Below the pieces are notes generated by a model. The model did not search any database, was not told the DNA's origin, and saw only the letters and a list, made by a program, of their open reading frames with translations. From NCBI GenBank assembly GCA_964545345.1, contig CAZJFE010000003.1:1-44096 (forward strand): DNA of 44,096 nucleotides, in the 5' to 3' direction. The position numbers were made by a program, and so were the translations under genes. The DNA comes from an uncultured Candidatus Saccharibacteria bacterium. GTDB taxonomy: Bacteria; Patescibacteriota; Minisyncoccia; UBA6257; WO2-44-18. Shown piece after piece: positions 24,654 to 39,612 of this stretch; position 1 is the stretch's first letter; every line of letters begins with the position of its first letter.

Positions 24654-24812
24654 CCAGTCTAACACCCGAAGGGTGTGCGTGGAGAAATCTGCGCACACCC
24701 TATTTTTTATGGTAAAATTAAAGTGAAACGATAGGATGCCCTTTCAATATAATCCCTGTATATCCTGTTAGTATTTTCATAACTTTCATCACACCAAAAC
24801 AGATTCCAGTAA

Positions 24813-25005: not shown

Positions 25006-25155
25006 GCAGTATCGGTCTAGTACCAACCCACTGCAAGGATCCAAGGGCTTTCTTGGGGCTCATTCCAATTAGCCGTTTGAGGTGTCTCGGTCTGGGGCGT
25101 TTGTTCGGAAAACGGGACAAATGAGACACTGGAGAGGCGTTTTAATAATTCGGTC

Positions 25156-26517
25156 TCATTCTGTCTTATAAGCTTCAAATATTTTCTGAACGAGATTCCT
25201 AAGGTTACTCATGTCTGTTGCGATGCGACCTACTGGATCAAACATAAATTGTTGGCCGTCTTTTTCTATTAGAGCAAAGTGGTCAATGCCCTTTTTGGAT
25301 TTAGAGATTCTATAATTAATCCGATCCAAAATCTTTTGGTGCTCGATTAACTCCGGCGAAAACATATGCGCGATATCTTTTGGCACCGGGGGCTCGTCTT
25401 TATAAATAATTTTATCTATCTCATCGTCTGATATTGTAGACTCGTCCGTAGTTATTAAAAGTGGAGAGGCCGAAAACATTTCTCTGTGGGCATTTTTATG
25501 CCTCAGTTGACCGAAAAAATACAGCCATTCTTGAAAATCATTTGATACTATAAAATCATAAAGAGCCACATTTTTGGCTTTTATTTTTGCTAAAAATTCT
25601 TTTTTAGAATTATGTAATCCGACAGCTTTGCGATCTTGGGATTTGCTAGGGCTGTACCCAAAAGAGAATATGTCATTGATTATCCACGCCAAATGATCGA
25701 TGGCGCCCCAAAGTAAAAACAAGTAATAGTTGAGATAATAACGAATGTACCCATGTAAGTGAGGTCTTTTGTTGCCACCATCCTTAATCAACTCATGCTC
25801 CACATCGTAAATTATTTGCTGCAATTTAAAAAAGTTGATTTGATCAATTGTAGTTAAAATATCTATGTAGCGATTGTGGACGAAAGAACGAACCCTTTCC
25901 TTTAGTTCTTCGCTTGGTTGCTTCTTGTTAATTTCTGACTCCAAAGAAATTAGTACTTTATTGTGAAATTCATCAGACATGGCATGCGCTATATCGGATG
26001 AATTTATCCCATATACAGAGTTTCGGAATTTGAAATAATTATAGAATCCTTGTGTGTATGACTCAATTTTTTTATATAGCTCTAATAAATTAACAATTTG
26101 CAGCCCGTATTGTTTCTCAATCTCACCCTTCTTCGCTGTATCGAATTCATTTTCGGTTAAGTAGAGAACGCATTTATTCTTAATTGCGATGGAAAGGAAC
26201 TCATTGAGCATCTTCCCGGCCTTTCCTAATTCCGTAGGCACAACATCAGGATGGATAGGGAAAACGTCAATTACAGCTTCCGGTTGGTTTTCAATGAGAG
26301 TGACTTTATCCTGGGGAAAAAAGGTCCGTCTGACACCCAATTTATCCTCTATATATTTTGGAAAGAAAAAGGTCACATCACACAAACTAGGGTCTATTTT
26401 TGTCAGATAATCTTGAAATGTATTAATTAAAAGAATCCTCTGTTCAAGGTTTTTCAACCCTATAAACGTAAGGGGGTCGATGAATATTTTTAAATTGTTA
26501 TTGATTAGATTCCACAT
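25156..26517 (-). CDS. HEPN-domain protein (Cthe_2314-like C-terminus), possible degenerate PIN-like N-terminus
   Basis: LWGAIDHLAWIIN and LRHKNAHR (RxxxxH); AT-rich gene. Confidence 0.6.
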   Translation of the reverse strand: MWNLINNNLKIFIDPLTFIGLKNLEQRILLINTFQDYLTKIDPSLCDVTFFFPKYIEDKLGVRRTFFPQDKVTLIENQPEAVIDVFPIHPDVVPTELGKAGKMLNEFLSIAIKNKCVLYLTENEFDTAKKGEIEKQYGLQIVNLLELYKKIESYTQGFYNYFKFRNSVYGINSSDIAHAMSDEFHNKVLISLESEINKKQPSEELKERVRSFVHNRYIDILTTIDQINFFKLQQIIYDVEHELIKDGGNKRPHLHGYIRYYLNYYLFLLWGAIDHLAWIINDIFSFGYSPSKSQDRKAVGLHNSKKEFLAKIKAKNVALYDFIVSNDFQEWLYFFGQLRHKNAHREMFSASPLLITTDESTISDDEIDKIIYKDEPPVPKDIAHMFSPELIEHQKILDRINYRISKSKKGIDHFALIEKDGQQFMFDPVGRIATDMSNLRNLVQKIFEAYKTE

Positions 26518-26628
26518 TTCCGTTTCCAAAAAACAAAGTGACAAGCCCATCGATACCGAGATCAAATCTCCATCATTCTATTCATCCATCTATTAAATTG
26601 TACGGCCTCCTAATGTTATAATCCAAGC

Positions 26629-26886
26629 ATGGAAAATGGAATATTATATCGTTGCCCCATATGCGACACGCCGATGTTTGAAAAGGTTGGCCTGAAACTT
26701 TTCGTCCAACGCATTCAAAACGGCAAGACAATCAAAATGGAGATCGATAGGAAAGATAGCGAGGGCGTTATGCGCATAGGCTGTGGCTCATGCGGCAAAG
26801 GCGGCCACATTCTTGCCGCCATACACGAAATGATCGGTATAGACGAAGTGGTTTCAGTTAAAAAAGAATCTGTTGTGGAGAAATAG
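26629..26886 (+). CDS. Zinc-ribbon protein
   Basis: CPIC and CGSC pairs. Confidence 0.7.
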   Translation: MENGILYRCPICDTPMFEKVGLKLFVQRIQNGKTIKMEIDRKDSEGVMRIGCGSCGKGGHILAAIHEMIGIDEVVSVKKESVVEK

Positions 26887-27067
26887 CTTGACGCAAAAAT
26901 CTGCAGTAGTATTATAAAAGAGTAAGTTGAAAATTTAATCGAGCATCGTCTGGAACGCCCAGGCACTAGTCGCAACTTTTTTGTTGGGACCCGTGCCTGG
27001 GCGTTTTTTATTTCTCGATTAGGTCGATTACGACTTACGCATTACAAAAATTAATAAAAATAAACAA

Positions 27068-28387
27068 ATGGAAAAGAAATTAAACATCCAGTACGTTCCG
27101 GTCGCCGATTTGCGGCCAGCACCGTACAATCCTCGAGTTCACACCAAGGAGCAGGCGGATCAGCTGAAAGAGAGCATTAAAAAATTCGGCGTTGTAGATC
27201 CAATTTTGGCTAACTCCGCCCCGAACCGGAAGAACATCGTAATTGGCGGTCATTTCCGGCTGGAGGTAGTTAAAGAAATGGGATTCAAAGAAGTGCCAGT
27301 CGTCTACATAAATGTTCCCGACATCGAAAAGGAAAAAGAAATTTGCATCAGACTAAATTTGAACACGGGCGAATTTGACTGGACTCTGCTTGCGGACTTC
27401 GATGAAATCTTTCTGAAAGACGTTGGCTTCTCCTCCGAAGATTTAGACGAAGTGTTTGGCGTGGACGACAATCCGGAAATCTTTGATCTCCAAAAGGAGT
27501 TAAAGAAACTCAACATAACCAAAATTCTTATTAAGAAGGGCGACGTTTGGAAATTGGGCGAGCATCGGCTTATGTGCGGAGACTCCACCATTGAATCTGA
27601 CATCTTGAAGCTGATGGGCGGCGAAAAGGCGTCGCTAGCGTTCACGGATCCCCCGTATATTTTGGATTATCTCAAAGGAAAGAAGAAAAATGGTAAGGCC
27701 ACTGAAGGGTTCGGGTACAAGCGTGATCGCAAATACTTGGAGACCGATTCAATTCCGGAGGACTTCACAGAAAAGTGGATGGCGAACATTGCCAAGATCG
27801 CCAAAGAGGATTTCCATATCATCGTATATGAAAACTGGAAAAATATCAGGACTATCTGGGGAGAGATGGAAAAGCATTGGAAGGTTCGCAATATGATTGT
27901 TTGGCATTTGCCAAACCGGATGCAGGGCTTCGCCGCGAAGTATAGGTTCTTCAATAAGCACGACATTGCCATGGTTGGATCTTCGGGCAAATCAGAACTC
28001 CGCCTGAATTCCGAGGGAGAGTTGTTGGATAACGAATACCGGACCGCGCTTTACGCCACCGCCGGGAAGCCGCACTGGGAGGGCTACGAGAAAGGAAAGA
28101 AAATCTGCCCGACTGATTTCATTGAGTATAAATCGGCAGACGCAAAAAGTTCCGGACAAGGAATTATTTTCGGAACCAAACCAGTCGAGATATTGATTCC
28201 GTATATGAAGGTTCTAACCAAGCGTGGAGATTTAGTAGTTGAGCCGTTCGGTGGTAGCGGATCAACTCTGATCACAGCTGAGAAAATGAAACGGCGTTGT
28301 TTCCTGATGGAAAAGTCGCCGGTCTACGCCGAAGTGATAAAGCATCGCTGGGAAAAGTTGACCGGCCTTAAAGCTAAAAAACTATGA
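27068..28387 (+). CDS. ParB-like N-terminal domain fused to an N6A/N4C DNA methyltransferase (phage type)
   Basis: LRPAPYNPR...IGGHFRL, HRLMCGDST, FTDPPY, TKPVE, EPFGGSGSTL. Confidence 0.92.
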   Translation: MEKKLNIQYVPVADLRPAPYNPRVHTKEQADQLKESIKKFGVVDPILANSAPNRKNIVIGGHFRLEVVKEMGFKEVPVVYINVPDIEKEKEICIRLNLNTGEFDWTLLADFDEIFLKDVGFSSEDLDEVFGVDDNPEIFDLQKELKKLNITKILIKKGDVWKLGEHRLMCGDSTIESDILKLMGGEKASLAFTDPPYILDYLKGKKKNGKATEGFGYKRDRKYLETDSIPEDFTEKWMANIAKIAKEDFHIIVYENWKNIRTIWGEMEKHWKVRNMIVWHLPNRMQGFAAKYRFFNKHDIAMVGSSGKSELRLNSEGELLDNEYRTALYATAGKPHWEGYEKGKKICPTDFIEYKSADAKSSGQGIIFGTKPVEILIPYMKVLTKRGDLVVEPFGGSGSTLITAEKMKRRCFLMEKSPVYAEVIKHRWEKLTGLKAKKL

Positions 28388-28803
28388 AGCGGGCAACTAA
28401 AACGTTGCTCCTAGAGCAGCTGAAGAAAACTCCAATAGTTCAGATTGCTTGTGAGAAAGCTGGCGTGGGCCGGGCAACATACTATCGCTGGCGTAAGGAA
28501 GATTTGGAATTCTCTAAGATGGCAGACGAAGCCATCTTAGAGGGCAGTTTTCTCGTTAATGACATGGCCGAAACCCAGCTTATGTCGGCAATTCGCGACA
28601 GGAATCTCACCGCCATAATCTTTTGGCTGAAACATCACCACTCTCAATACACTAACCGCCTGGAGATCAGCGGCCAGATTACTCATTTGCGCAAAGAACT
28701 CACCGAAGAAGAAAAGCAGATGGTCGAAAAAGCATTGCGATTGGCAATGCCGCAGGAAAATGAAGAACCGAATCAAAACAATGGAGAACCAACTACCCAA
28801 TAA
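28384..28803 (+). CDS. HTH protein, probable terminase small subunit
   Basis: ACEKAGVGRATYYRW HTH and AIIFWLK; directly upstream of terL. Confidence 0.75.
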   Translation: MKRATKTLLLEQLKKTPIVQIACEKAGVGRATYYRWRKEDLEFSKMADEAILEGSFLVNDMAETQLMSAIRDRNLTAIIFWLKHHHSQYTNRLEISGQITHLRKELTEEEKQMVEKALRLAMPQENEEPNQNNGEPTTQ

Positions 28804-30253
28804 ACCGGAAGAGATCATCCGAAGAATGATTGAGGATCCGAACTTCCGGCTAGAGCTGGTTCGGAACAGCCATTACTGGTTTATGCATTTTTATTTTCCT
28901 CATTATGTCACCTATCCGACCGCGGAGTTCCAGAAAGAAATATTCCAGCTTACGGAATCCCTAGATAGGACAGTGGTGATCACGGCTTTCCGTGGATCGG
29001 CAAAATCAACTATCTGCACCCTCTCGTATGCTATTTGGGCAATTCTCGGGAAGCAGGGAAAGAAGTTCGTAATCATGACTAGCCAAACTCAACGCCAAGC
29101 TCGTCAACATCTTATGAACCTGAAGCGTGAGTTGGAGAGTAACCCTTTCCTTTTGCGCGATTTAGGGCCATTTCATGAAGAACAAGATGAGTGGGGCGGC
29201 TATTCATTAGTTATTACGAAATACGGCGCAAGGATTACTGCCGCATCATCCGAGCAAAGCATTAGAGGATTGCGCCATATGAATTTCCGACCTGATTTAA
29301 TCATTGCCGACGATATCGAGGACCTACAATCAACGAGGACCAAAGAAGGGCGCGACAAGACTTACGATTGGCTATTGGGCGACGTAATCCCAGCTGGTGA
29401 TCAAAATACCAAGTTGATTATCGTAGGAAATCTTCTTCACGAGGATTCAGTAATGATGCGGCTGAAGTCGAGTATTGAGGAAGGGAAAATCGATGGAGTT
29501 TTCCGGGCGTACCCGATAATCGGTGAGGACAACAAAATACTTTGGCCGGGTAAATATCCAACGTTAGAAGCGGTAGAAAATGAAAAACGTAAAACCGGAA
29601 ACGAATCTGCTTGGAATCGGGAATACTTGTTACGGATCGTCAGCAATTCAGAACGAGTCGTTCATCCCGAATGGATTCAGCATTATAAAGAGCTGCCTGA
29701 TAAAGATCATCTGCGCTATACCGCAACAGGAGTTGATCTGGCTATATCGCTAAAAGAAACCGCTGACCGCACAGCAATGGTTTCGGCAAATATTTATGGC
29801 TATGGCGAGGATCTTAAAATCTACATCCTTCCCAATCCCATCAATGAGCGGCTGACATTTCCGCAGACGGTCGACCGGATAAAACTTTTGTCCAAGGTTC
29901 TTGGAGAGGGAGTGCAATCGCATATGTATATAGAAGAGGTTAGCTACCAGCGCTCGTTGATCGAACAACTTAACCGCGAGGGATACCACGCAGAAGGAGT
30001 TAAACTGCACGGCCAAGACAAACGCTCTCGGCTGGCTTTGACGACCGCCATGATTCAAAACGGTCAGATTGTTTTTCCCGAAAAAGGAGCCGAGGATTTA
30101 ATTCAACAGCTGACTGGTTTTGGGGTGGAAAGATTCGATGATCTTGCCGATGCCTTTTCCTTGTTAATACTAAAAACTACAACGGGAACTCATGTTGAGC
30201 CGAACATAACCTGGATAGATCTCGGGCCGCCGCGTGGGTGGCAAAGTTGGTAA
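28781..30253 (+). CDS. Phage terminase large subunit
   Basis: FRGSAKS Walker A, LIIADDIE Walker B, GVDLA and DDLADA nuclease motifs. Confidence 0.9.
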   Translation: MENQLPNKPEEIIRRMIEDPNFRLELVRNSHYWFMHFYFPHYVTYPTAEFQKEIFQLTESLDRTVVITAFRGSAKSTICTLSYAIWAILGKQGKKFVIMTSQTQRQARQHLMNLKRELESNPFLLRDLGPFHEEQDEWGGYSLVITKYGARITAASSEQSIRGLRHMNFRPDLIIADDIEDLQSTRTKEGRDKTYDWLLGDVIPAGDQNTKLIIVGNLLHEDSVMMRLKSSIEEGKIDGVFRAYPIIGEDNKILWPGKYPTLEAVENEKRKTGNESAWNREYLLRIVSNSERVVHPEWIQHYKELPDKDHLRYTATGVDLAISLKETADRTAMVSANIYGYGEDLKIYILPNPINERLTFPQTVDRIKLLSKVLGEGVQSHMYIEEVSYQRSLIEQLNREGYHAEGVKLHGQDKRSRLALTTAMIQNGQIVFPEKGAEDLIQQLTGFGVERFDDLADAFSLLILKTTTGTHVEPNITWIDLGPPRGWQSW

Positions 30254-30264
30254 AAGCTCCCAGC

Positions 30265-30810
30265 CTATTCAAATTTTATATTCAGGCTACCCTTCTTAAT
30301 TTTCTCCGGATCCGGAACCCCTTTCACTAGGCTAAGAACGAGCTTCCAAAGATATGGATTCTTTACCATAAAGAAAGAGCTTTTTGATTTTCCTTCAAAT
30401 GAAATTTCGAGTCCGTCGGTGTAGATTTCTATTGAGAGCATTTTATCTAAGTCTAATGATTTGTTTTCAATCATCCCGTCAAAGACGAGTCTTTTATTGG
30501 TTAGGATAAGAGCCCCGCTATCTATATCTCTAAGCTCGGGCAGACTTCTTGATTCACTCTGGCCACCACCGACGTATACTCCTTTGAACAATCGAACGCC
30601 CATCCCTCCGCCACTTCTCTTACTAACCATCCGGACTTCTTTTAGCGGCACTTTTTCTTCTGAGAAAAAAGCTTTTTCGTCTTTCTTCAATAAGATAGAT
30701 GTTTGCACTGGTCGGAGGCCGCCATTTTGTTCTGTGCTAGAAACAAAATCCTGCGCCTCCTTTATCTTTTCTTCCTTCTTATTGTTTTTAAATATTGAGA
30801 ATAAGCCCAT
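30265..30810 (-). CDS. Hypothetical protein (PH-like fold suspected)
   Basis: IDSGALILTNKRLVFDG motif; Gly-rich GMGVRLFKGVYVGGG. Confidence 0.7.
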   Translation of the reverse strand: MGLFSIFKNNKKEEKIKEAQDFVSSTEQNGGLRPVQTSILLKKDEKAFFSEEKVPLKEVRMVSKRSGGGMGVRLFKGVYVGGGQSESRSLPELRDIDSGALILTNKRLVFDGMIENKSLDLDKMLSIEIYTDGLEISFEGKSKSSFFMVKNPYLWKLVLSLVKGVPDPEKIKKGSLNIKFE

Positions 30811-30817
30811 TTTATTT

Positions 30818-31453
30818 TTAATTCGGCTTTACCCATTCATATGGAACCCATCCTGATCGACCAATTTTGTCTTGGTCAACTGGATTAACTCCTTGTACGA
30901 TCCTCACTCCCCGAGTTCCAACTCCAGAGTCAATCACTTTTATTCGCGTACCATTAGTAACTCCAAAGGCTTTTCCTTCAATAGCTAATTGCAATAAACC
31001 GACAGCATCTTTCGCGATGATAGTTTTAGTTAACTGATTTAAAGCCTCCGGCGTGGTTGCGAGGAATACAGTACCGCTCGGATCGTCGCTTGATCGCAAC
31101 ACGCCCTCACCGCCAATACTAACTACCGACTGTGTTTTTACGGACTGCTGCGGACTAGAAGAAATGGAACCGATAACGATGACAAGGATCATAAGAAAAA
31201 ATCCGCAGACAATGCTTGTGCCAATAATTAAAATTTTCTTTTTTTCTTTAATCTGACTTTCTATATTTTCACGAGCATCTTTGCTGGTTAGATCGGCGGT
31301 GCAATGTGAACATTTGGTGGCATTGGACGGAATTGTGTCCTTACAAAATGGACATTTAACCTTTATGCGTTCGAGGCGTGCTTCTTTGGCTGCTTTTTTT
31401 CGACCTTCCCTTGCGTCCCGCATTTTTTGATTTAAGTTCTTCAACCACTCCAT
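30818..31453 (-). CDS. Zinc-ribbon plus single-TM protein
   Basis: CPFC...CSHC, TM helix, SH3-like GWVPYEW ending. Confidence 0.75.
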   Translation of the reverse strand: MEWLKNLNQKMRDAREGRKKAAKEARLERIKVKCPFCKDTIPSNATKCSHCTADLTSKDARENIESQIKEKKKILIIGTSIVCGFFLMILVIVIGSISSSPQQSVKTQSVVSIGGEGVLRSSDDPSGTVFLATTPEALNQLTKTIIAKDAVGLLQLAIEGKAFGVTNGTRIKVIDSGVGTRGVRIVQGVNPVDQDKIGRSGWVPYEWVKPN

Positions 31454-31752
31454 ACTTTTTATTATTAATTTTTAATGTGCTGGCGAGAACATAAAACTCC
31501 CCGCCAGCGATCTCTTGCGAGACCCACATCCCTTTCGAGATGTGACTATCCCTAGTGCTCTGACGAGGAGTTTGATACTAGGGATAGATTCTTAGGCCAT
31601 ATCCTACGAGGATCGTAGGGGTTAGGTCTGCTTTATAGCTATTAAGTTGTAAATACATTTTAACTTACATACGGAACCTTGCGAAGTCCTTGCAACTACG
31701 GCCTGTACTGTTTTATAAACAGGCAGCTCAAGTTATTATTCTTATAAGAAAT

Positions 31753-32193
31753 ATGGACATGGATAACAAAAATGAACTTATAGCCGAAATTCAAAACAGG
31801 CTCAACCTTATTATGGTTGTAGTCGTTCTTTTCCCAACGCTAGTTTCTAGCTTATTCCAGCTCGCGAACGCACAAGCTCAGGCAAATAAAATGTTGCTTT
31901 CTTTGTCGGTTAACGCCGGGATTTATATATTCAGTTATTTTTTATTTGAGGCTAGAAAAAAGACAATGGGATTGGGATTTCTTAAAACAATTAATATTAT
32001 GTCGTTGATTGGCATAGGAACTTTTATATTTCCAATCTTGCTCATATCGACCAACCCAAATGGCCCATTAACATTTTGGAATGGATTATTTTTTACCGCA
32101 TCTCTATGGGGCATGCCCATCATCACTCTTGTCGTGTTTTGTATAATCCTAACGGCATTCATAACCTCTTTTCAGAATCATGACGGAAAATAA
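31753..32193 (+). CDS. Four-TM membrane protein
   Basis: Hydrophobic and AT-rich; overlaps the GNAT start. Confidence 0.65.
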   Translation: MDMDNKNELIAEIQNRLNLIMVVVVLFPTLVSSLFQLANAQAQANKMLLSLSVNAGIYIFSYFLFEARKKTMGLGFLKTINIMSLIGIGTFIFPILLISTNPNGPLTFWNGLFFTASLWGMPIITLVVFCIILTAFITSFQNHDGK

Positions 32194-32665
32194 ATTTGAA
32201 AATTCCGAAAGCGTGGAAATTGTTGAAGTTCCGACTTCGGACGAAGGAACGCTTGAGGCTGCGGCATTATTGATCACCGAGTATTCCTGGGGCAAAGATT
32301 ATCCGATAACTCCCCTAGATGAACTTCGGAAGAGTGAGTACTGTGTCGGGGCATACTCGGGAGATAAGTTAGTAGGATTCGCGGCGATTAACCGTTTTGC
32401 GAGCCCGGACGGCATAGACAGTGGCGAGCTTTGGTTGGGGTACGCAGTAGTTATTCCCGAATTCCGCGAACGGGGTATATACCAGAAACTATATTCCCAT
32501 CAAATGACGTACGCTGAAAAAGAATCGGGAAGGATTTTGTCCTGCACTAACAATCCAATTATTGCAAAATTTCTGTTGGGAAAAGGGTGGAAAGAGATTA
32601 GGAAAACAAAAGATGAGGGCGGCGAATACTGCTCAGTCTTTGAGTATATGAGACACTCGGCCTAA
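32180..32665 (+). CDS. GNAT family acetyltransferase
   Basis: LVGFA, VIPEFRERGIYQKL, FLLGKGW. Confidence 0.85.
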   Translation: MTENKFENSESVEIVEVPTSDEGTLEAAALLITEYSWGKDYPITPLDELRKSEYCVGAYSGDKLVGFAAINRFASPDGIDSGELWLGYAVVIPEFRERGIYQKLYSHQMTYAEKESGRILSCTNNPIIAKFLLGKGWKEIRKTKDEGGEYCSVFEYMRHSA

Positions 32666-32717
32666 ACCAACGCCACTCTGGACTTCATCGCGGGGTTGCG
32701 TCATCCATTGTCTTGCA

Positions 32718-34034
32718 ATGAAAGCAGCAACCCCAACGGGGCAGGCTTTGGATACTAAGCAGGTCCAGCCGCCAATCAAAATCAGATACTGCGTCTACGC
32801 TAGAAAAAGCACCGAATCCGAAGAACGGCAGGTGCTTTCCATTGATTCACAAACTAAAGAGATGCTTGAGCTCGCAGACAAAGAAGGCCTTGAGATCGTA
32901 GAGATCAAACGAGAATCGCACTCGGCTAAAGCTACCGGCCAGCGGCCGATCTTCAATGAACTTCTCAATGACATTCGCGCAGGGAAATTTAATGCCATTC
33001 TCACCTGGGCACCGGATCGCTTAAGCCGTAACGCCGGAGACTTAGGGGCGTTGGTAGATTTGATAGATCAGAAGCTGCTACTGGAAATCAGAACCTTCGG
33101 ACAAAAATTCACCAACTCACCGAATGAGAAGTTCCTTCTAATGATCTTGGGGTCGCAGGCCAAACTGGAAAACGACCAGAAAGGCGTGAACGTGAAGCGA
33201 GGACTAAGGTCGCGATGCGAGATGGGACTACGACCAGGAATCGCACCAACTGGATATATCAATGAAAAGCGAATGGACCGAAAGTGCCACGCCCTCGTTG
33301 ATCCAGAACGCGCTCCAGTGATAAAACAGATATTTGAAAAAGTGGCCAACGATAAGTGGAGCGGCAGAAGGGTCTATCACTGGTTGAGATACGAAATAAA
33401 CTTCTACACGAGAAGGAATAAGAACCTAACCTTAAGTAACATTTTTACTATTCTCCAAAACCCGTTTTATTACGGCGTCTTCGAGTATCCGGTAAAAAGC
33501 GACAATTGGTACACCGGTAAACATGAACCGCTTATTACCAAAGAATTATTCGATAAGGCCCGGGAACAGCTAAAGCGTGATCGCATCCAGCGAGAAAGCA
33601 AAGAATTCGCCTTCACTAAATTGATTACTTGCGGTCACTGCGGATCGGGCATAACAGCTGACGAAAAATTCAAACAACTAGCTGACGGAACCGTCGCCAG
33701 ATATGTCTACTACGGCTGCACCCGGAGCCGAGATCTGCATTGCAAGGGCGGATATATGAGAGAAGAAGATTTGATAGCTCAGCTTCTGTTGGTTATCGAT
33801 CAGATCGATATCAACGAGTTGGGAGTGCAGATTAAGTTTGAACAAGAGGTCGTGCGATATAACAAGTTCCGAAGAAACGTGCTCGGCGCGCAGGGAAAAT
33901 CTGAGGCCGAGGACATTAACTTAAAAACTTACGCCAAATATCTCCTCAGAGAAGGAAGCGTCATTGAGAAGCGCGAATTATTGTCCTCCTTCAAGAGCAA
34001 GCTAATTTTGAAGGACAAGCGGATCTCCCTCTAG
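32718..34034 (+). CDS. Large serine recombinase
   Basis: YARKS, DRLSRN, APTGY, HEPLIT, zinc ribbon CGHCG...YYGC...C. Confidence 0.95.
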   Translation: MKAATPTGQALDTKQVQPPIKIRYCVYARKSTESEERQVLSIDSQTKEMLELADKEGLEIVEIKRESHSAKATGQRPIFNELLNDIRAGKFNAILTWAPDRLSRNAGDLGALVDLIDQKLLLEIRTFGQKFTNSPNEKFLLMILGSQAKLENDQKGVNVKRGLRSRCEMGLRPGIAPTGYINEKRMDRKCHALVDPERAPVIKQIFEKVANDKWSGRRVYHWLRYEINFYTRRNKNLTLSNIFTILQNPFYYGVFEYPVKSDNWYTGKHEPLITKELFDKAREQLKRDRIQRESKEFAFTKLITCGHCGSGITADEKFKQLADGTVARYVYYGCTRSRDLHCKGGYMREEDLIAQLLLVIDQIDINELGVQIKFEQEVVRYNKFRRNVLGAQGKSEAEDINLKTYAKYLLREGSVIEKRELLSSFKSKLILKDKRISL

Positions 34035-35000
34035 CTCAACTTTTATTTTATTTGTATTCCCATGCCTCAACATTCCCAAATAGGACTGCCTTCGTGATTC
34101 GCTGGTATTATCTTTCATATTTCTGATCATTCTCCTCTTGGTGGCGCTTCGTAAAACCCGATGATCCGGAAAATGCACCCAGCCCAGAAAATCCACACCG
34201 GAGGCAATGGTCTTCAAGAAAATCTTGCTGGGGTGCAGATCTAGCTTCAAACGCTGCGTCAAAAACTCCCTCAACTTAGGGATTAGCTCTTCCAGCTCCC
34301 CTTTCTCTTGCGACAGAAAAACAAAGTCGTCAGCATAACGAGCGTAGTTTCTCACTTTCAATTTATGCTTCACGAACTGGTCAAACTCATTCATATAAAC
34401 GTTGGCGAATAACTGCGAGGTTAAATTTCCCAACGGCAACCCGATGCCGGGCGCGGAAGAAAAGCTCCCGATCACATTTCCCAACAACCATACGACTTTT
34501 TTGTCAGCTATATGCTCGTTCAGTAATTTCAACAATATTTCGTGGTCAATGCTAGCAAAAAATTTCCTAATATCGCACTTCAACACCCAGCAGGTCTTGG
34601 TGTGGTTCTTGCTAACCCGATAATTAACCGCCCTGAAACGATCCAGCGCCTTGTGCGTTCCCTTATTTGCCTGGCAAGAGAACGAATCAGCGATAAATCT
34701 CTTGGCAAAGTAAGGATAGAGGGCCAGGTGGATTGCGTGATGGAGTAACCGGTCGCGAACTCCCGCCTTGTGAATGATCCGAGGCTTCGGATCGGAGATA
34801 TTGAATCGATGATACCCGCCGTGTTTGTAGGTTCCGCTTGACAATTCCTGAAAAATCGCTAAAATATTAGCGAAGAACTTTGATTCGAAGGTCTGTACGT
34901 CTTTCTTGTTGGTCTTTCCTGGCAAAAACTGCCGCCATGCGGTTAGTAAACTTTCCACGGAGGTGATTTCTTGAAAACTATGGACGAATTGTTCAATCAT
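34002..35000 (-). CDS. DGR reverse transcriptase
   Basis: KPRII, RDRLLHHA, KCDIRKFFASIDH, GLPLGNLTSQLFAN, RYADDF, DFLG; adjacent TR/VR pair. Confidence 0.97.
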   Translation of the reverse strand: MIEQFVHSFQEITSVESLLTAWRQFLPGKTNKKDVQTFESKFFANILAIFQELSSGTYKHGGYHRFNISDPKPRIIHKAGVRDRLLHHAIHLALYPYFAKRFIADSFSCQANKGTHKALDRFRAVNYRVSKNHTKTCWVLKCDIRKFFASIDHEILLKLLNEHIADKKVVWLLGNVIGSFSSAPGIGLPLGNLTSQLFANVYMNEFDQFVKHKLKVRNYARYADDFVFLSQEKGELEELIPKLREFLTQRLKLDLHPSKIFLKTIASGVDFLGWVHFPDHRVLRSATKRRMIRNMKDNTSESRRQSYLGMLRHGNTNKIKVELEGDPLVLQN

Positions 35001-35354
35001 AAGTCAGTTAATATTACAGATCCGCCGATAGTTAGAAAAACTATCAGTTCTTATCGTATTCTCCACGAATTTCTAGATAAAATTCCTAAGACTTACCGCT
35101 ATACCCTCGGTTCGCGGATCGACAACACTTTCATCGCCTTTGGCGAAGAAATAGTTTCCGCCACCTATACAAAAGATCAGCAAAAAATAAGCCATCTAAA
35201 CCTAGCCAGCCAAAAACTGGACTCTTTGAATTTCCTATTAAGGATCAGCTGGGAGATACGGATCCTAGATACCAAGAAATATGCCGCCTTAGGCCAAGCA
35301 TTCGCCGAGATCGGCAGAATGCTTGGCGGTTGGCAGAAGCAAGTAATGAAGTAA
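34980..35354 (+). CDS. avd: Avd-like four-helix-bundle DGR accessory protein
   Basis: PKTYRYTLGSRI and EIGRMLGGW motifs; ~124 aa; ATG 34980. Confidence 0.9.
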   Translation: MDELFNHKSVNITDPPIVRKTISSYRILHEFLDKIPKTYRYTLGSRIDNTFIAFGEEIVSATYTKDQQKISHLNLASQKLDSLNFLLRISWEIRILDTKKYAALGQAFAEIGRMLGGWQKQVMK

Positions 35355-35359
35355 AGGGT

Positions 35360-35484
35360 TTGCGGACGGCGAGGAACCGGTAGTTCGCATTCCAGTCGTT
35401 GTCATACCAGTTCAGGTTCAGCTTGCGTTCGCTGTTGAAGTACAGGTACGGCACGTTGCGGTTACCGTTCGAGTCCCGCCAGGT
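35360..35484 (-). ncRNA. DGR template repeat (TR)
   Basis: Ungapped match to both VRs with differences almost only at TR adenines; 8 AAC and 1 AAT codons in the target frame. Confidence 0.96.
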
Positions 35485-35634
35485 ATGTGCAAAGCTCCTT
35501 CCGCGCCACCACCCCTCGAATACTCTTAGGGTTGAATCGAATTCTGTGTCTTGAACACAATAGCGCCTTGCACCAACTCCTAAACTTCATAATGACCGCT
35601 CGAAGCCGTAGCCGCGAGCTGTTTCGTCCCCTTT

Positions 35635-35640
35635 ATTATA
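35635..35640 (-). promoter_or_regulatory. Candidate -10 box for a TR(-RT) transcript
   Basis: Perfect TATAAT just past the target-1 terminator, ~150 nt upstream of TR; no clear -35. Confidence 0.45.
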
Positions 35641-35649
35641 CATTTTTTG

Positions 35650-35689
35650 AAAAAAGAAAAAGCCCCTGTTCTCTAAAGAGAACAGGGGC
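35650..35689 (-). terminator. Intrinsic terminator of DGR target 1
   Basis: GCCCCTGTTCTC-TTTA-GAGAACAGGGGC followed by TTTTTCTTTTTT. Confidence 0.85.
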
Positions 35690-35723
35690 GTAAGGACCAA
35701 GACCCAAGGGACTAAGGACCAGG

Positions 35724-35738
35724 CTCCGCTTCGCGGAG
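35724..35738 (-). other. GAA-loop hairpin immediately after the VR1 stop codon (candidate DGR homing hairpin)
   Basis: CTCCGC-GAA-GCGGAG. Confidence 0.65.
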
Positions 35739-36380
35739 TTAGGAGTTGCGGACGGCGAGGAACCGGCAGCCCGCATCCCAGCCGCCGTCATCCCAGCCCA
35801 GGTCCAGCCCGCGCTCGCCGCCGAAGCACAGGCACGGCACGTCGCGGCCACCGCCCGAGTCCCGCCATTCCTGTCCGAGAGCCACGACCCAGTCCTTGCC
35901 GTTCCAGTTCGCAGACATCCAGGTAAGGAGTTCGCGAAGGTTGGCAGGGCGGTAGCCTTCTTTCTTCATCTCGGCGACCATCTGATCGGAGGAAACGACC
36001 TTGTTGGGATAGAAGACCTTGAAGTCTGTCTTCACTCCGACGTCCGGGAAGTTCGCTTCGGTGATGTTCACGTTGACGTAGCCGAAGCTTCCAGACTGGA
36101 TCATCTTCTGCAGATCCTTGCCGCAGATCGCGCCGCCCTTCGGGTCCTCGATCCGAGCGAGCAGCTTGTCGATCGTGCCGCAGAGGCCTTCCGAGAACTT
36201 CTGAACTTCACTCTTGAAATCCACCAGAGCCGATTTCAGCTCCGGACTGGCCAGCCTCCCCTCCGCCACTTCCAGCTTCTTCTTGAGACCTTCGTTGATC
36301 TCCGTCAGGGCTGCGATCGTCGGCTGGGTCAGATCCTGGCTCACCTCAACGGATGCCTCGCTCTTTTCCGCGTCGGTCAT
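35739..36380 (-). CDS. DGR target protein 1 (helical N-terminus, C-terminal variable domain, CLec-like fold inferred)
   Basis: Ends in VR1 (...WDAGCRFLAVRNS); AAGGAG RBS before ATG 36380. Confidence 0.92.
   Translation of the reverse strand: MTDAEKSEASVEVSQDLTQPTIAALTEINEGLKKKLEVAEGRLASPELKSALVDFKSEVQKFSEGLCGTIDKLLARIEDPKGGAICGKDLQKMIQSGSFGYVNVNITEANFPDVGVKTDFKVFYPNKVVSSDQMVAEMKKEGYRPANLRELLTWMSANWNGKDWVVALGQEWRDSGGGRDVPCLCFGGERGLDLGWDDGGWDAGCRFLAVRNS
35746..35867 (-). repeat. DGR variable repeat VR1
   Basis: Versus TR: 23 A->G, 1 T->G, no gaps. Confidence 0.96.
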
Positions 36381-36425
36381 GGCTCTCTCCTTTGCTTGGG
36401 TTTTTGTTTGTACAGAACTGCTGTG

Positions 36426-36455
36426 AATATAGCACACTTTAGGCCTATTTGTCAA
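36426..36455 (-). promoter_or_regulatory. Sigma70-type promoter of target 1
   Basis: TTGACA-18-TATATT with TGn extension. Confidence 0.7.
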
Positions 36456-36481
36456 GCTAAAAACTTGCCGAATTCGGGAAC

Positions 36482-36516
36482 AAAAAATCCCCGCATTCTC
36501 GAAAGAATGCGGGGAT
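36482..36516 (-). terminator. Intrinsic terminator of DGR target 2
   Basis: ATCCCCGCATTCT-TTCG-AGAATGCGGGGAT followed by a T-tract. Confidence 0.85.
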
Positions 36517-36545
36517 AAGTACCAAGGGCCAAGAGCCCAAGGGTC

Positions 36546-37391
36546 TTAGGAGTTGCGGACGGCGAGGACCCGGCAGCCCGCATCCCAGCCGCCGCCACAC
36601 CAGCCCAGGCCCAGCCCGCGCGCGCCGCCGAAGCACAGGCACGGCACGCCGCGGCGACCGCCCGAGCCCCGCCAGGTCTGGCCGAGAGCAACGATCGGGT
36701 TCTCCTTCTGCCGGTTGGGATGATCCAATCCCAGCGAAAGGAGAGCGACGGGCTTGGCCGCCTTGAGCTTCAGGACCTTCATCATCTTCAGGATGTCCTT
36801 GGTGCTGGCGTCACGGCCCATGCTCACCAAGACGAGTTCCTGCTTCTTGGCAGAGCCCTTCTTGGCCGGGTAGTTCTTGCTGGTCACGGCCTCATTGGCC
36901 CAGGCCAGCTTGTTCGCCTTGACCAGCTCGTCGACCGAGAGATCATGACGCACACCCACTTCCAGCACTTCGGTCTTCACGTCCCGCATCGGGATCGCCG
37001 CGAGGGCCGCTCGGCAGAAGGACTTGAGGCCCTTCCACTTCTTGTCGCTGGGGGCGTTCTGGATGATATATTCCAGATCGTCCTCTTGGGCGAACTGCGT
37101 GATCATACGACCGAAGTTCTTCTTGAAGCTCTCGAAATCATGCAGTTTGGCCTGGATCTCCTTGGGAAGCTTATCGCTTTCCCAGAAGTTCTTCTCTTCC
37201 CCATGCTTGCCGCCTTTGCAAAGCGAGCCCCAGATGTTGTCGATGGCGTGATGGCCAAGGAAATCATTGTCCTTCAGACCCTCCAGCATCTCACGGCCGC
37301 GCTCGGAAAAGACTTCATCGTCGGTAAGGAAAAAGACTGTCTTCTTGCTACCCTTAGCCTCAACTTCTTTCCAGCTGACGAATTCGCACAT
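36546..37391 (-). CDS. DGR target protein 2
   Basis: Ends in VR2 (...WDAGCRVLAVRNS); AAGGAGG RBS before ATG 37391. Confidence 0.92.
   Translation of the reverse strand: MCEFVSWKEVEAKGSKKTVFFLTDDEVFSERGREMLEGLKDNDFLGHHAIDNIWGSLCKGGKHGEEKNFWESDKLPKEIQAKLHDFESFKKNFGRMITQFAQEDDLEYIIQNAPSDKKWKGLKSFCRAALAAIPMRDVKTEVLEVGVRHDLSVDELVKANKLAWANEAVTSKNYPAKKGSAKKQELVLVSMGRDASTKDILKMMKVLKLKAAKPVALLSLGLDHPNRQKENPIVALGQTWRGSGGRRGVPCLCFGGARGLGLGWCGGGWDAGCRVLAVRNS
36553..36677 (-). repeat. DGR variable repeat VR2
   Basis: Versus TR: 27 A->G, 2 A->C, 1 T->G, no gaps. Confidence 0.96.
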
Positions 37392-37458
37392 CGGAGCCCC
37401 TCCTTGTTTGGGTTTTTCAGTTTTTATCCATCGCATGATGGATTTGTGAACTGCCGTA

Positions 37459-37487
37459 AATATAGCAGAATTGAGCTAAAAAGTCAA
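37459..37487 (-). promoter_or_regulatory. Sigma70-type promoter of target 2
   Basis: TTGACT-17-TATATT with TGn extension. Confidence 0.7.
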
Positions 37488-37520
37488 GGGGATGAAATTC
37501 ACAAAATAATAACTACCCCC

Positions 37521-37556
37521 TACTAAAATCCCCGGGGTGCCCCGGGGATTTTAGTA
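37521..37556. terminator. Long inverted repeat, probable terminator
   Basis: Perfect 17-bp arms TACTAAAATCCCCGGGG/CCCCGGGGATTTTAGTA around a 2-nt centre, directly after a stop codon. Confidence 0.75.
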
Positions 37557-37763
37557 CTACTTTTTGCGCCGATTATAAGGCGGCTGGTTCGGAGGATCAA
37601 GGCTGATCCTCTTCTGAGAAGCCATATTGCTTACAGCAGCAGGAGTCCTGCCAAGCTTTAGGCTAATAACACGAGTGGGGGTATTTCCAAGAGCAAGATC
37701 GCGTAGCTTAGAAACCTCGCCAGGAGTCCACTGTTTACCAGAATTTCTATTATATTTTGCCAT
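37557..37763 (-). CDS. Small basic HTH/Myb-like protein
   Basis: KQWTPGEVSKL...ISLKLGRTPAAV pattern. Confidence 0.7.
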   Translation of the reverse strand: MAKYNRNSGKQWTPGEVSKLRDLALGNTPTRVISLKLGRTPAAVSNMASQKRISLDPPNQPPYNRRKK

Positions 37764-37794
37764 TTGAATTTTTTATTTACAATCTTTGACCGAG

Positions 37795-37822
37795 CGTTCC
37801 GGCAGCGGCCGCTGCCGGAACG
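37795..37822. repeat. Perfect 28-bp palindrome
   Basis: CGTTCCGGCAGCGG|CCGCTGCCGGAACG. Confidence 0.9.
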
Positions 37823-37836
37823 ACCCAGCTAGCAAG

Positions 37837-38115
37837 TTACAAGAACTTACGCTTGTGCAGCCAGTTCAGGCCATCACTCTCGTTGATCTTCCCATACCAA
37901 TCGCCTTGGAGCCGAAAAACGACTATTTCGTCATTGGCGTCTAAAGCGTAGGGACTGATCAAGTCATACACCTGCTTAGCAGATAATGGGGTCTCCACGA
38001 GCCAAGCAGAAGTAGTGTGATGCCAGTAAGTACCAGAGATACTCTCAATTGCCTTATAAAGGCGTGAATATTCCTGGCCCGGCCGATGCAGCGAGTAAGA
38101 AATGAGGTGAGTCAT
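37837..38115 (-). CDS. Small Cas2/VapD-like (ferredoxin-fold) protein
   Basis: LISYSL...GQEYSRLYKAI...SAWLV...DEIVV pattern. Confidence 0.55.
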   Translation of the reverse strand: MTHLISYSLHRPGQEYSRLYKAIESISGTYWHHTTSAWLVETPLSAKQVYDLISPYALDANDEIVVFRLQGDWYGKINESDGLNWLHKRKFL

Positions 38116-38386
38116 TTTGTTTACTTAACTAGATTGTCTTATGAGGGGCTTAACTGGTAGACTACAACCGTACAGTATCCGCCCTAAGAACCACTCGACT
38201 TTTAGCGAGCCCGCGAGCCTGCTAGTCCAGGCAATACGAGTCCCGCTGTGGCCTAGGCGGTGGGATAAGATTAAGCCCCCAAGAAACCGTCCCGATGGGG
38301 CGGTTTCTTGGTTGTTCAATCTCTTTGTGATTATATTTGTAGTCATAGTCAGCTTACTTTGCTTAAATAATAATAAAAATTTTTTA

Positions 38387-39070
38387 CTAGGTCAATGCCG
38401 GATATAGAAGATCTAGCCGGGCCTTTGCGGCGGCCGGGTTCACGTTAAAAACTTCGGCAAGAATCTCAATAGCTCGACTTCTCAGTGAAGGATCCAAGAC
38501 CTTAAGCTCAAACGGTCCCCCGGTTGAAAGTAGCCCGGCTATCGACTTTTCTACTAAATCGCTCGGGAGAAGCAAGCTTCCAATCGCTTGATTAGCCTGA
38601 TATTCCCACCATTTACCATCATAGCCAGTTCTTAGAACGTCAGAACTTTCATTCTCCCGACATAGAATCTTGGGCTCATCCAGACCGTCAACAAAAAGTG
38701 CCTTGGGTTTCTTACCAAGTACGAATAGATGGCCCTGGAAGAGGGCGTGTCCGGCCTCGTGAGCTAGCGTTGTGCGAATCCGGCGCTCTGAGCTTAAGGA
38801 TCCGTCTTCATCTAAAGATCGGGCTACAACCACTTCTTCTAATCCACGCTTACCGAAACGAGAAAACCCCAGCACCCCCTCCGGCATATCAATATATTGA
38901 TGGACAACGCCGAATCTTTTTTCTATAAAGCGATCGATGCGAACTGGGGCGGGCTTGTCGGGCAATAATCCAACCATCCGTAATTCATTGGAGCATGTTC
39001 TTTCAATCTCGTCCTGTTTATAAAAAGGCCGTGTTTGAAATGGACCAGATTTTGCTCTCAATGTATGCAT
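38387..39070 (-). CDS. ImmA/IrrE family metallopeptidase
   Basis: RIRTTLAHEAGH and EYQANQAIGSLLLP. Confidence 0.9.
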   Translation of the reverse strand: MHTLRAKSGPFQTRPFYKQDEIERTCSNELRMVGLLPDKPAPVRIDRFIEKRFGVVHQYIDMPEGVLGFSRFGKRGLEEVVVARSLDEDGSLSSERRIRTTLAHEAGHALFQGHLFVLGKKPKALFVDGLDEPKILCRENESSDVLRTGYDGKWWEYQANQAIGSLLLPSDLVEKSIAGLLSTGGPFELKVLDPSLRSRAIEILAEVFNVNPAAAKARLDLLYPALT

Positions 39071-39417
39071 TAATTTTTATTACTTTTCCTTGCCTTGTCG
39101 GCGAGCTTTATTAATTCCTCTGGGGTAACGCCCTCGTCTATCACTTTTCGGAAAGCAAGACCGTACCCAGGATTCTTTTTCGTCGCCTCCTTCATGCCTT
39201 CAATAGGTGGCCGATTATCATATTCCTTGAGCTTTTCTAAGCTAATCCCGAGTACGCGGGCCATGTCCGCCAATACCTCATCGGATGGATAGCGACGCCC
39301 GAGTTCGATATCGGAAAGAAAGGCTGCGGAGAGATCACCGAGCTTCTCGCCGAACTCGCGCAAGGACAAATCCTTACCGTCTCTCAGCTCACGTATAAAT
39401 TCTCCCAGAGTCTTCAT
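39070..39417 (-). CDS. XRE family HTH regulator
   Basis: LSLREFG...SAAFLSDIELGRRYPS; TAATG coupling to the ImmA gene. Confidence 0.92.
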   Translation of the reverse strand: MKTLGEFIRELRDGKDLSLREFGEKLGDLSAAFLSDIELGRRYPSDEVLADMARVLGISLEKLKEYDNRPPIEGMKEATKKNPGYGLAFRKVIDEGVTPEELIKLADKARKSNKN

Positions 39418-39525
39418 ACTAGTAAGCTTACAGCATTACAGATTAGGAGTCAATGCCCAATGTAGGTAATATGTTTATAACAAAACATAGAAGACTCTCG
39501 GTCTCTCGATAAAAAGTTTCAAGTG

Positions 39526-39612
39526 CGGAGGCGGAAGGATTCGAACCTTCGGAACCCTTTCGGGTTCAACGCATTAGCAGTGCGCTGCTTTCGGCCACTC
39601 AGCCACGCCTCC
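39526..39612 (-). tRNA. tRNA-Ser(GCT)
   Basis: GGAGGCG/CGCCTCC acceptor, GCGCA-CTGCTAA-TGCGT anticodon arm, long variable arm. Confidence 0.97.

Follow-up and report, generated by a model that had tools for sequence, protein, structure and literature searches.

A complete two-target DGR of the Patescibacteria type on an inserted island in a Candidatus Saccharibacteria genome

The window, meaning the whole stretch of 44,096 nucleotides that was analysed, contains an inserted block beside a tRNA gene, and within this block a DGR with two target genes. The DGR parts follow each other in the order target(s) with VR, promoter, folded leader, TR, inverted avd, and RT. The features and their coordinates in the window are as follows.

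25100..39523: inserted island beside tRNA-Ser(gct), ~14.4 kb, absent from this site in the congeners G001 and G002
32718..34034 (+): large serine recombinase, 438 aa, with Resolvase, Recombinase, and Zn_ribbon_recom domains
35000..34002 (-): DGR reverse transcriptase (RT), 332 aa, RVT_1 match with E 1.8e-24
34838-34865: promoter-like site near avd, TTGACA/16/TAAAAT
34980..35354 (+): accessory gene avd from its ATG, opposite to all other DGR parts, 124 aa, match to bAvd PF22296 with E 2.2e-16
about 35484..35359 (-): template repeat TR1, rich in adenine (33 A), the cognate template of VR1 and VR2
35484..35594 (-): structured leader RNA of ~110 nt directly 5' of TR1, covariance model R1
35662..35689 (-): terminator of target 1 (12-bp stem, then a T run)
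35724..35738 (-): DGR target-site element, a hairpin just past VR1 and the stop codon with a 6-bp GC-rich stem and 3-nt loop
36380..35739 (-): target 1 (T1), 213 aa, N-terminal helical hairpin and C-terminal lectin-like domain with VR1
35867..35746 (-): VR1, 3' end of target 1
36426..36455 (-): promoter of target 1, TTGACA/18/TATATT with TG, 11/12 matches
36487..36516 (-): terminator of target 2 (13-bp stem, then a T run)
37391..36546 (-): target 2 (T2), 281 aa, N-terminal domain and C-terminal lectin-like domain with VR2
36677..36553 (-): VR2, 3' end of target 2
37459..37487 (-): promoter of target 2, TTGACT/17/TATATT with TG
39525..39612 (-): tRNA-Ser(gct), right border of the island

The translation of the RT contains the motifs YADD and GNLTSQ, the latter being typical of DGR RTs. 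The 857-kb genome (85.6% complete, 77 contigs) has no other RVT_1 match. A search for relatives of the RT returned 562 proteins, and the loci of the best 80 of these 562 were surveyed. Nearly all of the 80 stem from Patescibacteria MAGs, with identities of 57-67%, and TR/VR pairs lie beside the RT in 61 of them, always at equal spacing, which together with the RVT_1 match places the RT in the DGR lineage. The avd product scored 60.7 bits against bAvd (cut-off 40) and 81.2 bits against NCBIfam NF033474 DivGenRetAVD (cut-off 80), and is thus an Avd protein. Its start overlaps that of the RT in divergent orientation. At its other end, the RT converges with the recombinase gene, and the 33-nt overlap of their 3' ends described in the earlier note was found at 34002-34034. 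RT, avd, and both leaders and both TRs of the genome are intact, with neither stops nor frameshifts.

In register with TR1, VR1 shows 27 mismatches, 24 of them at TR adenines, and VR2 shows 32, of which 30 fall on adenines. The complete two-target DGR that the earlier note had placed at 34002-37487, comprising RT, Avd, TR, and two tandem targets with adenine-specific VRs at their 3' ends, was confirmed. In addition, another contig (C10) holds a second template repeat (TR2) and a third target with VR3, whose 21 mismatches to TR2 are all located at adenines. Each VR pairs with one TR only; non-cognate pairings gave 47-49 mismatches, about half of them off A. Each of the three VRs runs up to the stop codon of its ORF, and the TR copies carry an AAC-codon pattern. 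If the IMH letters and the 5' boundary are set aside, changes off adenine amount to one or two T>G per VR. Among the TR1 adenines, 24/33 are changed in VR1 and 30/33 in VR2; in the relatives, the changed share averages 57% and reaches 81% at most. In this genome, the changes from TR to VR are A>G in 70 cases, A>C in 4, and A>T in none, while the 61 related loci show 59% A>G, 18% A>C, and 23% A>T. The A-to-G bias is strong to an unusual degree, and three independent VRs depart from the 61 relatives in this respect.

The VRs and TR1 have the GC-rich end CCTCGCCGTCCGC in common, with the final letters AACTCC in the VRs as opposed to AAACCC in TR1 (IMH and IMH* ends). The hairpin following VR1 has a DNA fold of -6.4 kcal/mol, and a similar 7-bp hairpin is present 3' of VR3 on C10 (-7.5 kcal/mol); that of VR2 is weaker. 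Such a hairpin follows the VR but not the TR.

The leader upstream of TR1 matched covariance model R1 with 93.4 bits (E 3.8e-17). Across 60 sequences the fold comprises 23 pairs, with 96.5% of cells paired and compensatory changes in 20 pairs. None of 500 shuffles reached the observed value, and slid controls were paired to 31-53%. The genome contains exactly two copies of the leader, which precede TR1 and TR2, are close in sequence, and fit the same model with 93 and 83 bits. Neither Rfam nor the searchable literature yielded a match. A terminator hairpin follows the TR in 56 of the 61 related loci and is absent after TR1, which is abutted by the avd stop. The same arrangement was seen in the closest relative, L096, and, by the printed flanks, in three of the five relatives without the hairpin.

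The second template gene, on the 26-kb contig C10, stands alone as a self-contained unit of leader, TR2, and its own terminator; its leader has the same fold as that of TR1, and its own target, carrying VR3, has 603 aa. No RT was found up to 18 kb from TR2 in either direction, whereas the RT of related loci starts about 0.4 kb past the TR. TR2 is most likely served in trans by RT and Avd of the window.

The two targets of the window have unrelated N-termini and related C-termini, as the earlier note had described. The N-terminal domain of target 2 is an alpha/beta domain without an assigned fold and with the conserved motifs MCEF.SW and DNDxxGHH; neither it nor the helical hairpin of target 1 matched a signalling or defence family. 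The C-terminal domains of ~100 aa, which carry the VRs, have a compact C-type-lectin-like fold, the fold of DGR variable proteins such as Mtd and TvpA. Their best structural match, by its title, is the C-terminal domain of Bd2740, part of a predator's cell-surface fibre. The domain family comprises 6,863 clusters at E≤0.001 and is without a Pfam model. The targets may have a ligand-binding role.

Each target has its own promoter, ribosome-binding site (AAGGAG(G), 7-8 nt upstream of the ATG), and terminator, in agreement with the earlier note; in the underlying scan, promoter-like sites numbered 7 (2.8 expected) and terminator-like sites 11 (5.0 expected). The ATGs at 36380 and 37391 are the likely starts, rather than those of the longest ORFs. 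The target bodies are richer in GC than the RT (55-57% vs 45%), as noted before, but this excess is a trait of the whole clade, a point that had been missed. In neither target was a signal peptide or membrane segment found, the maximum Kyte-Doolittle 19-aa means being 0.35 and 1.06, so that no hydrophobic segment is present. Both look like soluble, non-exported proteins and may reside in the cytoplasm.

Besides the serine recombinase and the DGR, the island contains a 469-aa ORF without an assigned family, a ParB-methylase, TerS, TerL, a LOOT RNA, a GNAT protein, and an XRE/ImmA-like pair. Two of the four congeners that have the flanking gene were inspected, and both lack the block at this site. 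In G002, tRNA-Ser(gct) is directly followed by homologs of window position ~19990 and downward, and in G001 the region from 25.1 to 39.5 kb is replaced by 1.1 kb of other DNA. The description as a mobile island is supported by this synteny. The 3' end of the tRNA is directly repeated over 13 nt at 24813 and 39524; as a sign of att sites this is weak, with a chance expectation of about 0.06, and it lies off the synteny break (~25.1 kb). Serine recombinases are not generally expected to leave such repeats. Recombinase homologs are found near the DGR in 5 of the 80 related loci. When the 28 proteins of the window were compared with PHROGs, TerS and TerL were the only such matches, with no capsid, portal, or tail family on the island. 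For this reason the block is not classed as a complete prophage; with its serine recombinase, terminase genes, and XRE/ImmA-like switch, it is regarded as a remnant or island related to phages.

The gene order, with the TR upstream of a reverse-strand avd and then the RT, is architecture B3, TR-(avd)-RT, which has a 90% share within the CPR set in the accessible part of Wu 2018 (PMC5758913), and avd is inverted in 74 of the 80 related loci. L096 possesses a homolog of target 2, a TR, and an inverted avd, and the first 81 residues of its RT are 94% identical to those of the window. In addition, CPR clade 2 is described as almost entirely cellular in the available text of Roux 2021 (PMC8144416). 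The element belongs to these CPR DGRs, as far as the two sources portray them. It shares with them the gene order, the inverted avd, an RT 57-67% identical to those of 80 CPR loci, a C-terminal VR in a small target without a recognisable transmembrane or Pfam domain, and the groundwater habitat. It differs from their usual form, as described there, in the second stand-alone template gene with a target on another contig, the location on an island with recombinase and terminase genes, and the extreme share of A>G. The inverted avd, the standard CPR layout, and the second template gene with the third target were not mentioned in the earlier note.

With the prototype DGR of Bordetella phage BPP-1 (mtd-avd-TR-brt), the element has in common an RT and an Avd, the adenine-specific flow from TR to VR, a VR on the C-terminus of a C-type-lectin fold, a GC-rich IMH, and a hairpin that follows the VR. 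Unlike in BPP-1, an inverted avd stands between TR and RT, the targets are not read as tail fibres, and the RT is only distantly related. The conserved folded RNA is located 5' of the TR, whereas BPP-1 has the RT-10 motif between TR and RT, according to the portion of Weinberg 2017 at hand (PMC5737381). In E. coli, BPP-1 misincorporated 59.3% C, 26.4% G, and 14.3% A, by the figures in the accessible part of PMC12875486, to which the spectrum of the related loci is close.

Taken together, this is very probably a genuine, complete DGR of the Patescibacteria type on an inserted block, whose RT and Avd diversify the targets and probably also use TR2 in trans. Because of the homology to the Bordetella DGR, a retrohoming mechanism can be proposed. 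The template RNA, consisting of leader and TR1, would be transcribed, and the RT with Avd would convert it into cDNA while misreading template adenines. The cDNA would then replace the homologous 3' ends, VR1 and VR2, of the two separately transcribed genes, presumably guided by the GC-rich IMH end and the small hairpin after the VR. In each target, about a dozen codons on the compact C-type-lectin-like domain would be recoded.

As nearly all differences set an A in the TR against a G in the VR, the direction might also be reversed, the 'TR' copies being G-to-A hypermutated pseudo-copies of gene ends and not templates. This is hardly tenable, given that the A-rich copies carry the AAC-codon pattern and are placed exactly like the TRs of 61 related loci, behind the conserved folded leader and by avd and RT, that the four A>C changes are incompatible with deamination, and that it is the VR copies that lie inside intact genes and are followed by IMH hairpins. 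A DGR that worked in the direction from TR to VR could still be a fossil: its targets would have been diversified at an earlier time, the cassette would now be silent or defective in the present lineage, and the VRs would be frozen alleles. The source run (X1) and a second sample (X2) of the same study were compared as assembled contigs only; VR1 and VR2 were letter-identical in both, and in the source assembly both lie within one 4,990-nt contig with 0 differences. The missing terminator hairpin after TR1 and the unusual saturation of the VRs point the same way. However, RT, avd, both leaders, and both TRs are intact, and the few off-adenine changes per VR indicate little drift since the last event. 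Moreover, contigs cannot reveal minor variants, and one contig of X1 does carry another letter at 36661, a TR-adenine site, 17 nt from the contig end. We consider a fossil rather doubtful, and the DGR may be active at present.

For TR2 and target 3, the incomplete genome in its 77 contigs leaves room for a separate second DGR, whose RT and avd would be unassembled or lost, and CPR genomes often carry several independent DGR loci (as cited in the available text of PMC10907252). Such a second element is unlikely in view of the 18 kb without an RT around TR2, compared to the 0.4 kb of the surveyed loci, the self-contained unit with its own terminator, and the similarity of the two leaders. The targets of the window, in turn, could be receptor-binding proteins of a particle, phage-like or satellite, that the island encodes, and not cytoplasmic. 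In accordance with this, TerS and TerL are located 5-7 kb away on the same block, a signal peptide is not required in virion proteins, the lectin-like head of target 1 is preceded by a helical hairpin, and Bd2740, by its title, was the best structural match. Nevertheless, the island has no capsid, portal, or tail family, terminase homologs occur in only 2 of the 80 related loci, the targets are not part of a late operon but have a sigma-70-like promoter and a terminator each, and the clade is almost entirely cellular in Roux 2021, as far as available; we regard particle components as quite improbable. The proposal of the earlier note that the targets are cytoplasmic binders rather than tail fibres therefore stands in part: the lack of signal peptides and membrane segments and the CPR clade-2 targets as presented in Roux 2021 favour it, and the terminase genes on the island and the signal-peptide-free nature of virion proteins count against it. 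Its suggestion of phage sensing found no direct support. Among 16 proteins, PADLOC detected no defence system; besides weak capH/capP-like matches of the XRE/ImmA-like regulator pair, only an orphan-type methylase and generic RT models were matched. A published precedent exists in the DGR-diversified 'antigen sensors' of multicellular bacteria (Dore 2024, PMC10907252), which, in the accessible part of that paper, likewise have CLec-type variable domains and are predicted cytoplasmic proteins. Those carry fusions to STAND NTPase, MoxR, or further conflict-system domains and depend on clade-5 RTs, while the N-terminal parts found here match no such family.

The element is an ordinary one for Patescibacteria, ultra-small groundwater bacteria in which DGRs of this type are known to abound, and chiefly confirms published surveys. 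Beyond this, it is conceivable, at somewhat less than even chances, that in CPR-type DGRs the ~110-nt folded leader, and not an element adjacent to the RT, is the handle by which RT and Avd recognise the template and prime on it. Leader, TR, and terminator would then form portable cassettes, several of which the RT and Avd of the island would drive in trans (TR1 for the two adjacent targets, TR2 for the remote one), and in this genome the enzyme or its cellular context would be a near-pure A-to-G writer. If true, this would be a natural, near-pure A-to-G targeted editor (70 G, 4 C, 0 T), for which misincorporation of C, inosine formation in the template, and GC-biased repair of the retrohoming heteroduplex are candidate routes. 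A near-exclusive A-to-G change, if enzymatic, bears on how the RT selects the misincorporated base, a question of current interest for engineered DGR mutagenesis as treated in the available part of PMC12875486. With one RT-Avd pair, two template genes, and three cognate VRs, this small genome offers a clean natural test case for cassettes acting in trans and for the leader RNA, and the C-terminal domain of its targets defines a very large, unnamed family of compact lectin-like variable domains.

The cassette between 37487 and 34002 is a real, complete diversity-generating retroelement (DGR) of a well-described kind. It lies on contig C3, the whole of which forms the window, in an 857-kb genome assembly of 77 contigs that is 85.6% complete. 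Read along the minus strand from 37487 to 34002, the order is target 2 unit, target 1 unit, TATAAT box, leader, template repeat (TR1), inverted avd and reverse transcriptase (RT):

ATG at 37391, minus strand: target 2 unit, with promoter, RBS, a 281-aa target ending in the variable repeat VR2, and terminator
ATG at 36380, minus strand: target 1 unit, with promoter, RBS, a 213-aa target ending in VR1, a small hairpin and terminator
Minus strand: leader of ~110 nt, preceded by a TATAAT box and followed by TR1
35484–35359, minus strand: TR1
34980–35354, strand opposite to the other cassette genes: avd, with a bAvd match
35000–34002, minus strand: RT, with an RVT_1 match (E 1.8e-24)

Avd scored above the cut-off of the NCBI DivGenRetAVD equivalog (81.2 vs 80 bits). 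Compared in register with TR1, VR1 showed 27 mismatches, 24 of them at TR adenines, and VR2 showed 32, 30 of them at TR adenines; what remained were the IMH/IMH* letters, the 5' boundary and, once in each repeat, a T>G. As the differences fall almost only at TR adenines and the parts were identified by matches, the two-target DGR with RT, Avd and TR described in the earlier note is confirmed. The parts of its layout stood as well, with one correction: avd is inverted, and its start (ATG 34980, plus strand) overlaps that of the RT gene (ATG 35000, minus strand) divergently by 21 nt in the stretch 34957–35000. The best promoter-like site for avd was located at 34838–34865, within the RT coding region.

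RT relatives were collected by scanning one genome per species, which gave 562, and locus statistics were determined on the best 80 (57–67% identity, nearly all from Patescibacteria MAGs). The RT relatives of this genome point to groundwater Patescibacteria. In 74 of the best 80 loci avd lay between TR and RT in inverted orientation; in five others the RT was at a contig edge and gave no data, and the single "same-strand" case was part of a second DGR. A-biased TR/VR pairs were detected by script in 61 of the best 80 loci, always ~0.4–0.5 kb upstream of the RT. The DGR in the window thus shares the standard layout of CPR (Patescibacteria) elements with the TR-(avd)-RT architecture B3, which makes up 90% of Wu 2018's CPR set (PMC5758913). 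The closest relative, L096, was the one locus returned by a search with the target 2 protein alone. This locus (L096:9001–10813) is a mosaic: identity is 94% over RT residues 1–81, where the DNA is near-identical too, but 69% for Avd and 64% for the target 2 homolog; it has only one target, and ordinary host genes lie upstream.

Immediately 5' of the TR lie ~110 conserved nt with a three-helix fold. In an alignment of 60 leader sequences, 23 pairs were 96.5% paired, with compensatory changes in 20 of them; the observed value was reached in 0 of 500 shuffles, and slid partners were only 31–53% paired. Rfam gave no match in the TR/leader region. A covariance model of the leader found exactly two copies in the genome, one ahead of TR1 and one on contig C10. 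The related features outside the window are as follows:

C10:18636–18892: second template repeat (TR2) with its leader (L002; leader 83 bits), TR2 itself at C10:18636–18761
C10:19105–20916: target 3, a 603-aa ORF ending in VR3, 0.35 kb upstream of the C10 template
C60:1737–2375 (L003), C28:7868–8863 (L004) and perhaps C10:16875–17504: paralogs of the target C-terminal domain

TR2 is A-rich and a terminator hairpin comes after it; leader, TR2 and terminator form a stand-alone template gene. All 21 differences between VR3 and TR2 fall on adenines, with 19 changed to G and 2 to C. Non-cognate pairings gave 47 (VR3 with TR1), 47 (VR1 with TR2) and 49 mismatches (VR2 with TR2); VR1 and VR2 pair with TR1, showing 28 and 31 mismatches in this comparison, and VR3 pairs with TR2. 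Neither RT nor avd was found on the 26-kb contig C10, and the whole assembly contained a single RVT_1 match. The simplest reading is that one RT–Avd pair serves two template genes; a second RT could possibly reside in the unassembled part of the genome. Wording for multiple TRs was absent from the available portions of Wu 2018 (PMC5758913) and Roux 2021 (PMC8144416). Of 61 relatives, 56 have a terminator-like hairpin downstream of the TR; TR1 is atypical in having none. The avd stop abuts TR1, as it does in L096 and, judged by the printed flanks, in three of the five hairpin-less relatives.

The paralogs on C60 and C28 were ruled out as further targets, since A accounted for 24 of 53 mismatches in the former and 15 of 45 in the latter. 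The VR-like ends of the paralogs carry many non-adenine differences from either TR, which indicates former or never-served targets. The C28 paralog contains a borderline hydrophobic segment (KD 1.35).

Target 1 has 44 homologs, of which three are full length and the others share only the last ~125 residues, whereas 11 full-length homologs were found for target 2. A profile search with the target domain returned 6,863 clusters at the E≤0.001 threshold and 4,442 at E≤1e-10; in some of them the domain is repeated in tandem. No family match to the targets was obtained in Pfam, PHROG, NCBIfam or PADLOC, and a sequence-profile search of the PDB gave chance-level rows only (E 0.058 and above). The structure prediction called for in the earlier note yielded confident AlphaFold models of targets 1 and 2 (pLDDT 85 and 89.5; C-terminal domains >90), in which the N-terminal part of target 1 is a helical hairpin. 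For target 2, Foldseek with the whole model gave no clear match to the N-terminal domain, and residues 1–136 gave no usable Atlas hit. In its 11 homologs this domain (residues 1–136 of gene 36546–37391) has a near-invariant MCEF(I/V)SW start and a DNDxxGHH motif; the Cys at position 2 is reminiscent of N-terminal-nucleophile enzymes. The N-terminal region of target 3 matched only unnamed Atlas clusters.

Neither a hydrophobic segment nor an N-terminal signal-like stretch was present in any of the three targets. Judged from sequence, a cytoplasmic location, as suggested before, is plausible and fits this absence, which is not proof; the accompanying idea of phage sensing found no support. In Roux 2021 (PMC8144416), CPR DGRs fall into clade 2 and their targets are typically without transmembrane or other known domains.

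The higher GC content of the targets, also pointed out earlier, holds (target bodies 55–57%, RT 45%) and is clade-wide rather than peculiar to the window. In the relatives, the mean excess of target bodies over their own RT was 12.2 GC points (62 pairs, sd 7.4; maximum 30 points in L072), so the difference in the window is typical. The available portion of Roux 2021 (PMC8144416) does not mention "GC content". In 60 relatives' pairs, A3/(A3+T3) was 0.455 for targets and 0.443 for RTs; third-position A and T drop together and the GC enrichment is thus strand-symmetric, which rules out off-target adenine mutagenesis as its cause.

The view that the DGR is carried on a mobile island is supported by synteny. 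The right flank consists of a methyltransferase gene, conserved in all four same-genus genomes searched, and tRNA-Ser(gct). In G002, homologs of window ~19990 and downward lie within 0.5 kb of the tRNA; in G001, 1.1 kb of other DNA separates the tRNA from a homolog of window 25090–24815. Window 25.1–39.5 kb is therefore an insertion relative to both genomes, missing at the tRNA-Ser(gct) site. Thirteen nt of the tRNA 3' end are repeated at 24813 and 39524, which could be chance. The cargo comprises a large serine recombinase, ParB-methylase, TerS, TerL, LOOT RNA, GNAT, the DGR and an XRE/ImmA-like pair; capsid, portal and tail families were not detected in the island. Among the best 80 related loci, serine recombinase homologs were near the DGR in five, and ParB-methylase plus terminase genes in two (L009, L022). 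Such neighbours being rare, and host genes lying upstream in L096, the DGR is only sometimes island-borne.

The LOOT RNA (Rfam RF03000; 31509–31628, minus strand; 82.8 bits vs gathering 46.4) has two unknown genes on one side and a membrane-protein gene on the other. An XRE-type HTH gene overlaps an ImmA-like metallopeptidase gene with a HEAGH motif at 38387–39417 (minus strand), on the upstream side of the targets where the island ends; PADLOC gave weak matches, with E 1.6e-10 for capH and E 1.5e-7 for capP, and the pair may be a damage-responsive switch. A non-coding block of ~280 nt (24815–25090, minus strand), ~84% conserved with G001 in a six-frame comparison, contains the T-loop-like motif GGATTCGAACC, and its last 13 nt equal the tRNA-Ser 3' end. 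At 24.8–25.1 kb Rfam gave no match and ARAGORN no call; the block could represent either an att-side remnant or some unknown RNA. A second block, 20014–24800, is wholly or partly missing here in G001 and G002; its genes are Nudix, FabG-like, GFO/IDH/MocA oxidoreductase, HAD hydrolase and a 224-aa orphan. The tRNA-Ser flank thus appears to be a hot spot of variation within the genus.

Summed over VR1–VR3, 70 adenines were changed to G, 4 to C and none to T. Counted in register, VR1 and VR2 together had 50 changes to G and 4 to C, and one of the latter in each repeat is the IMH letter. In contrast, 63 TR/VR pairs from 61 related loci gave 670 changes of A to G, 206 to C and 263 to T (59/18/23%), and at least 85% A>G was reached in only five of these pairs. 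This clade spectrum resembles that of the Bordetella enzyme in cells, which misincorporates 59.3% C, 26.4% G and 14.3% A according to PMC12875486. The first A of AAC changed to G/C/T in 75/10/0% in this genome vs 30/25/20% in the relatives. For at least 70 of 76 changes being A>G at p = 0.59, P is ~9e-11 assuming independent sites, a rough figure only, since cell and enzyme are common to all sites. VR1 and VR2 are also unusually saturated, with 24 and 30 of 33 TR adenines changed (relatives' mean 57%, maximum 81%).

General GC pressure on the VRs can be ruled out, since none of 21 TR T residues was changed to C and the change is thus adenine-specific. A trait of the nearest RT lineage is unsupported, as the adenine changes in L096 are 12 to G, 1 to C and 3 to T. 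The A>G excess may stem from a skew in the enzyme or the dNTP pool, from inosine on the template, from GC-biased heteroduplex repair or from selection for Gly/Asp/Ser.

Variation in the VRs was compared in assembled contigs of four runs. At contig level, VR1 and VR2 were identical in the probable source run (X1) and a second sample of the same study (X2); a single X1 contig differed at 36661, a TR-adenine site. The value of this DGR for follow-up lies in its extra template gene, TR2, and in the extreme A>G outcome.
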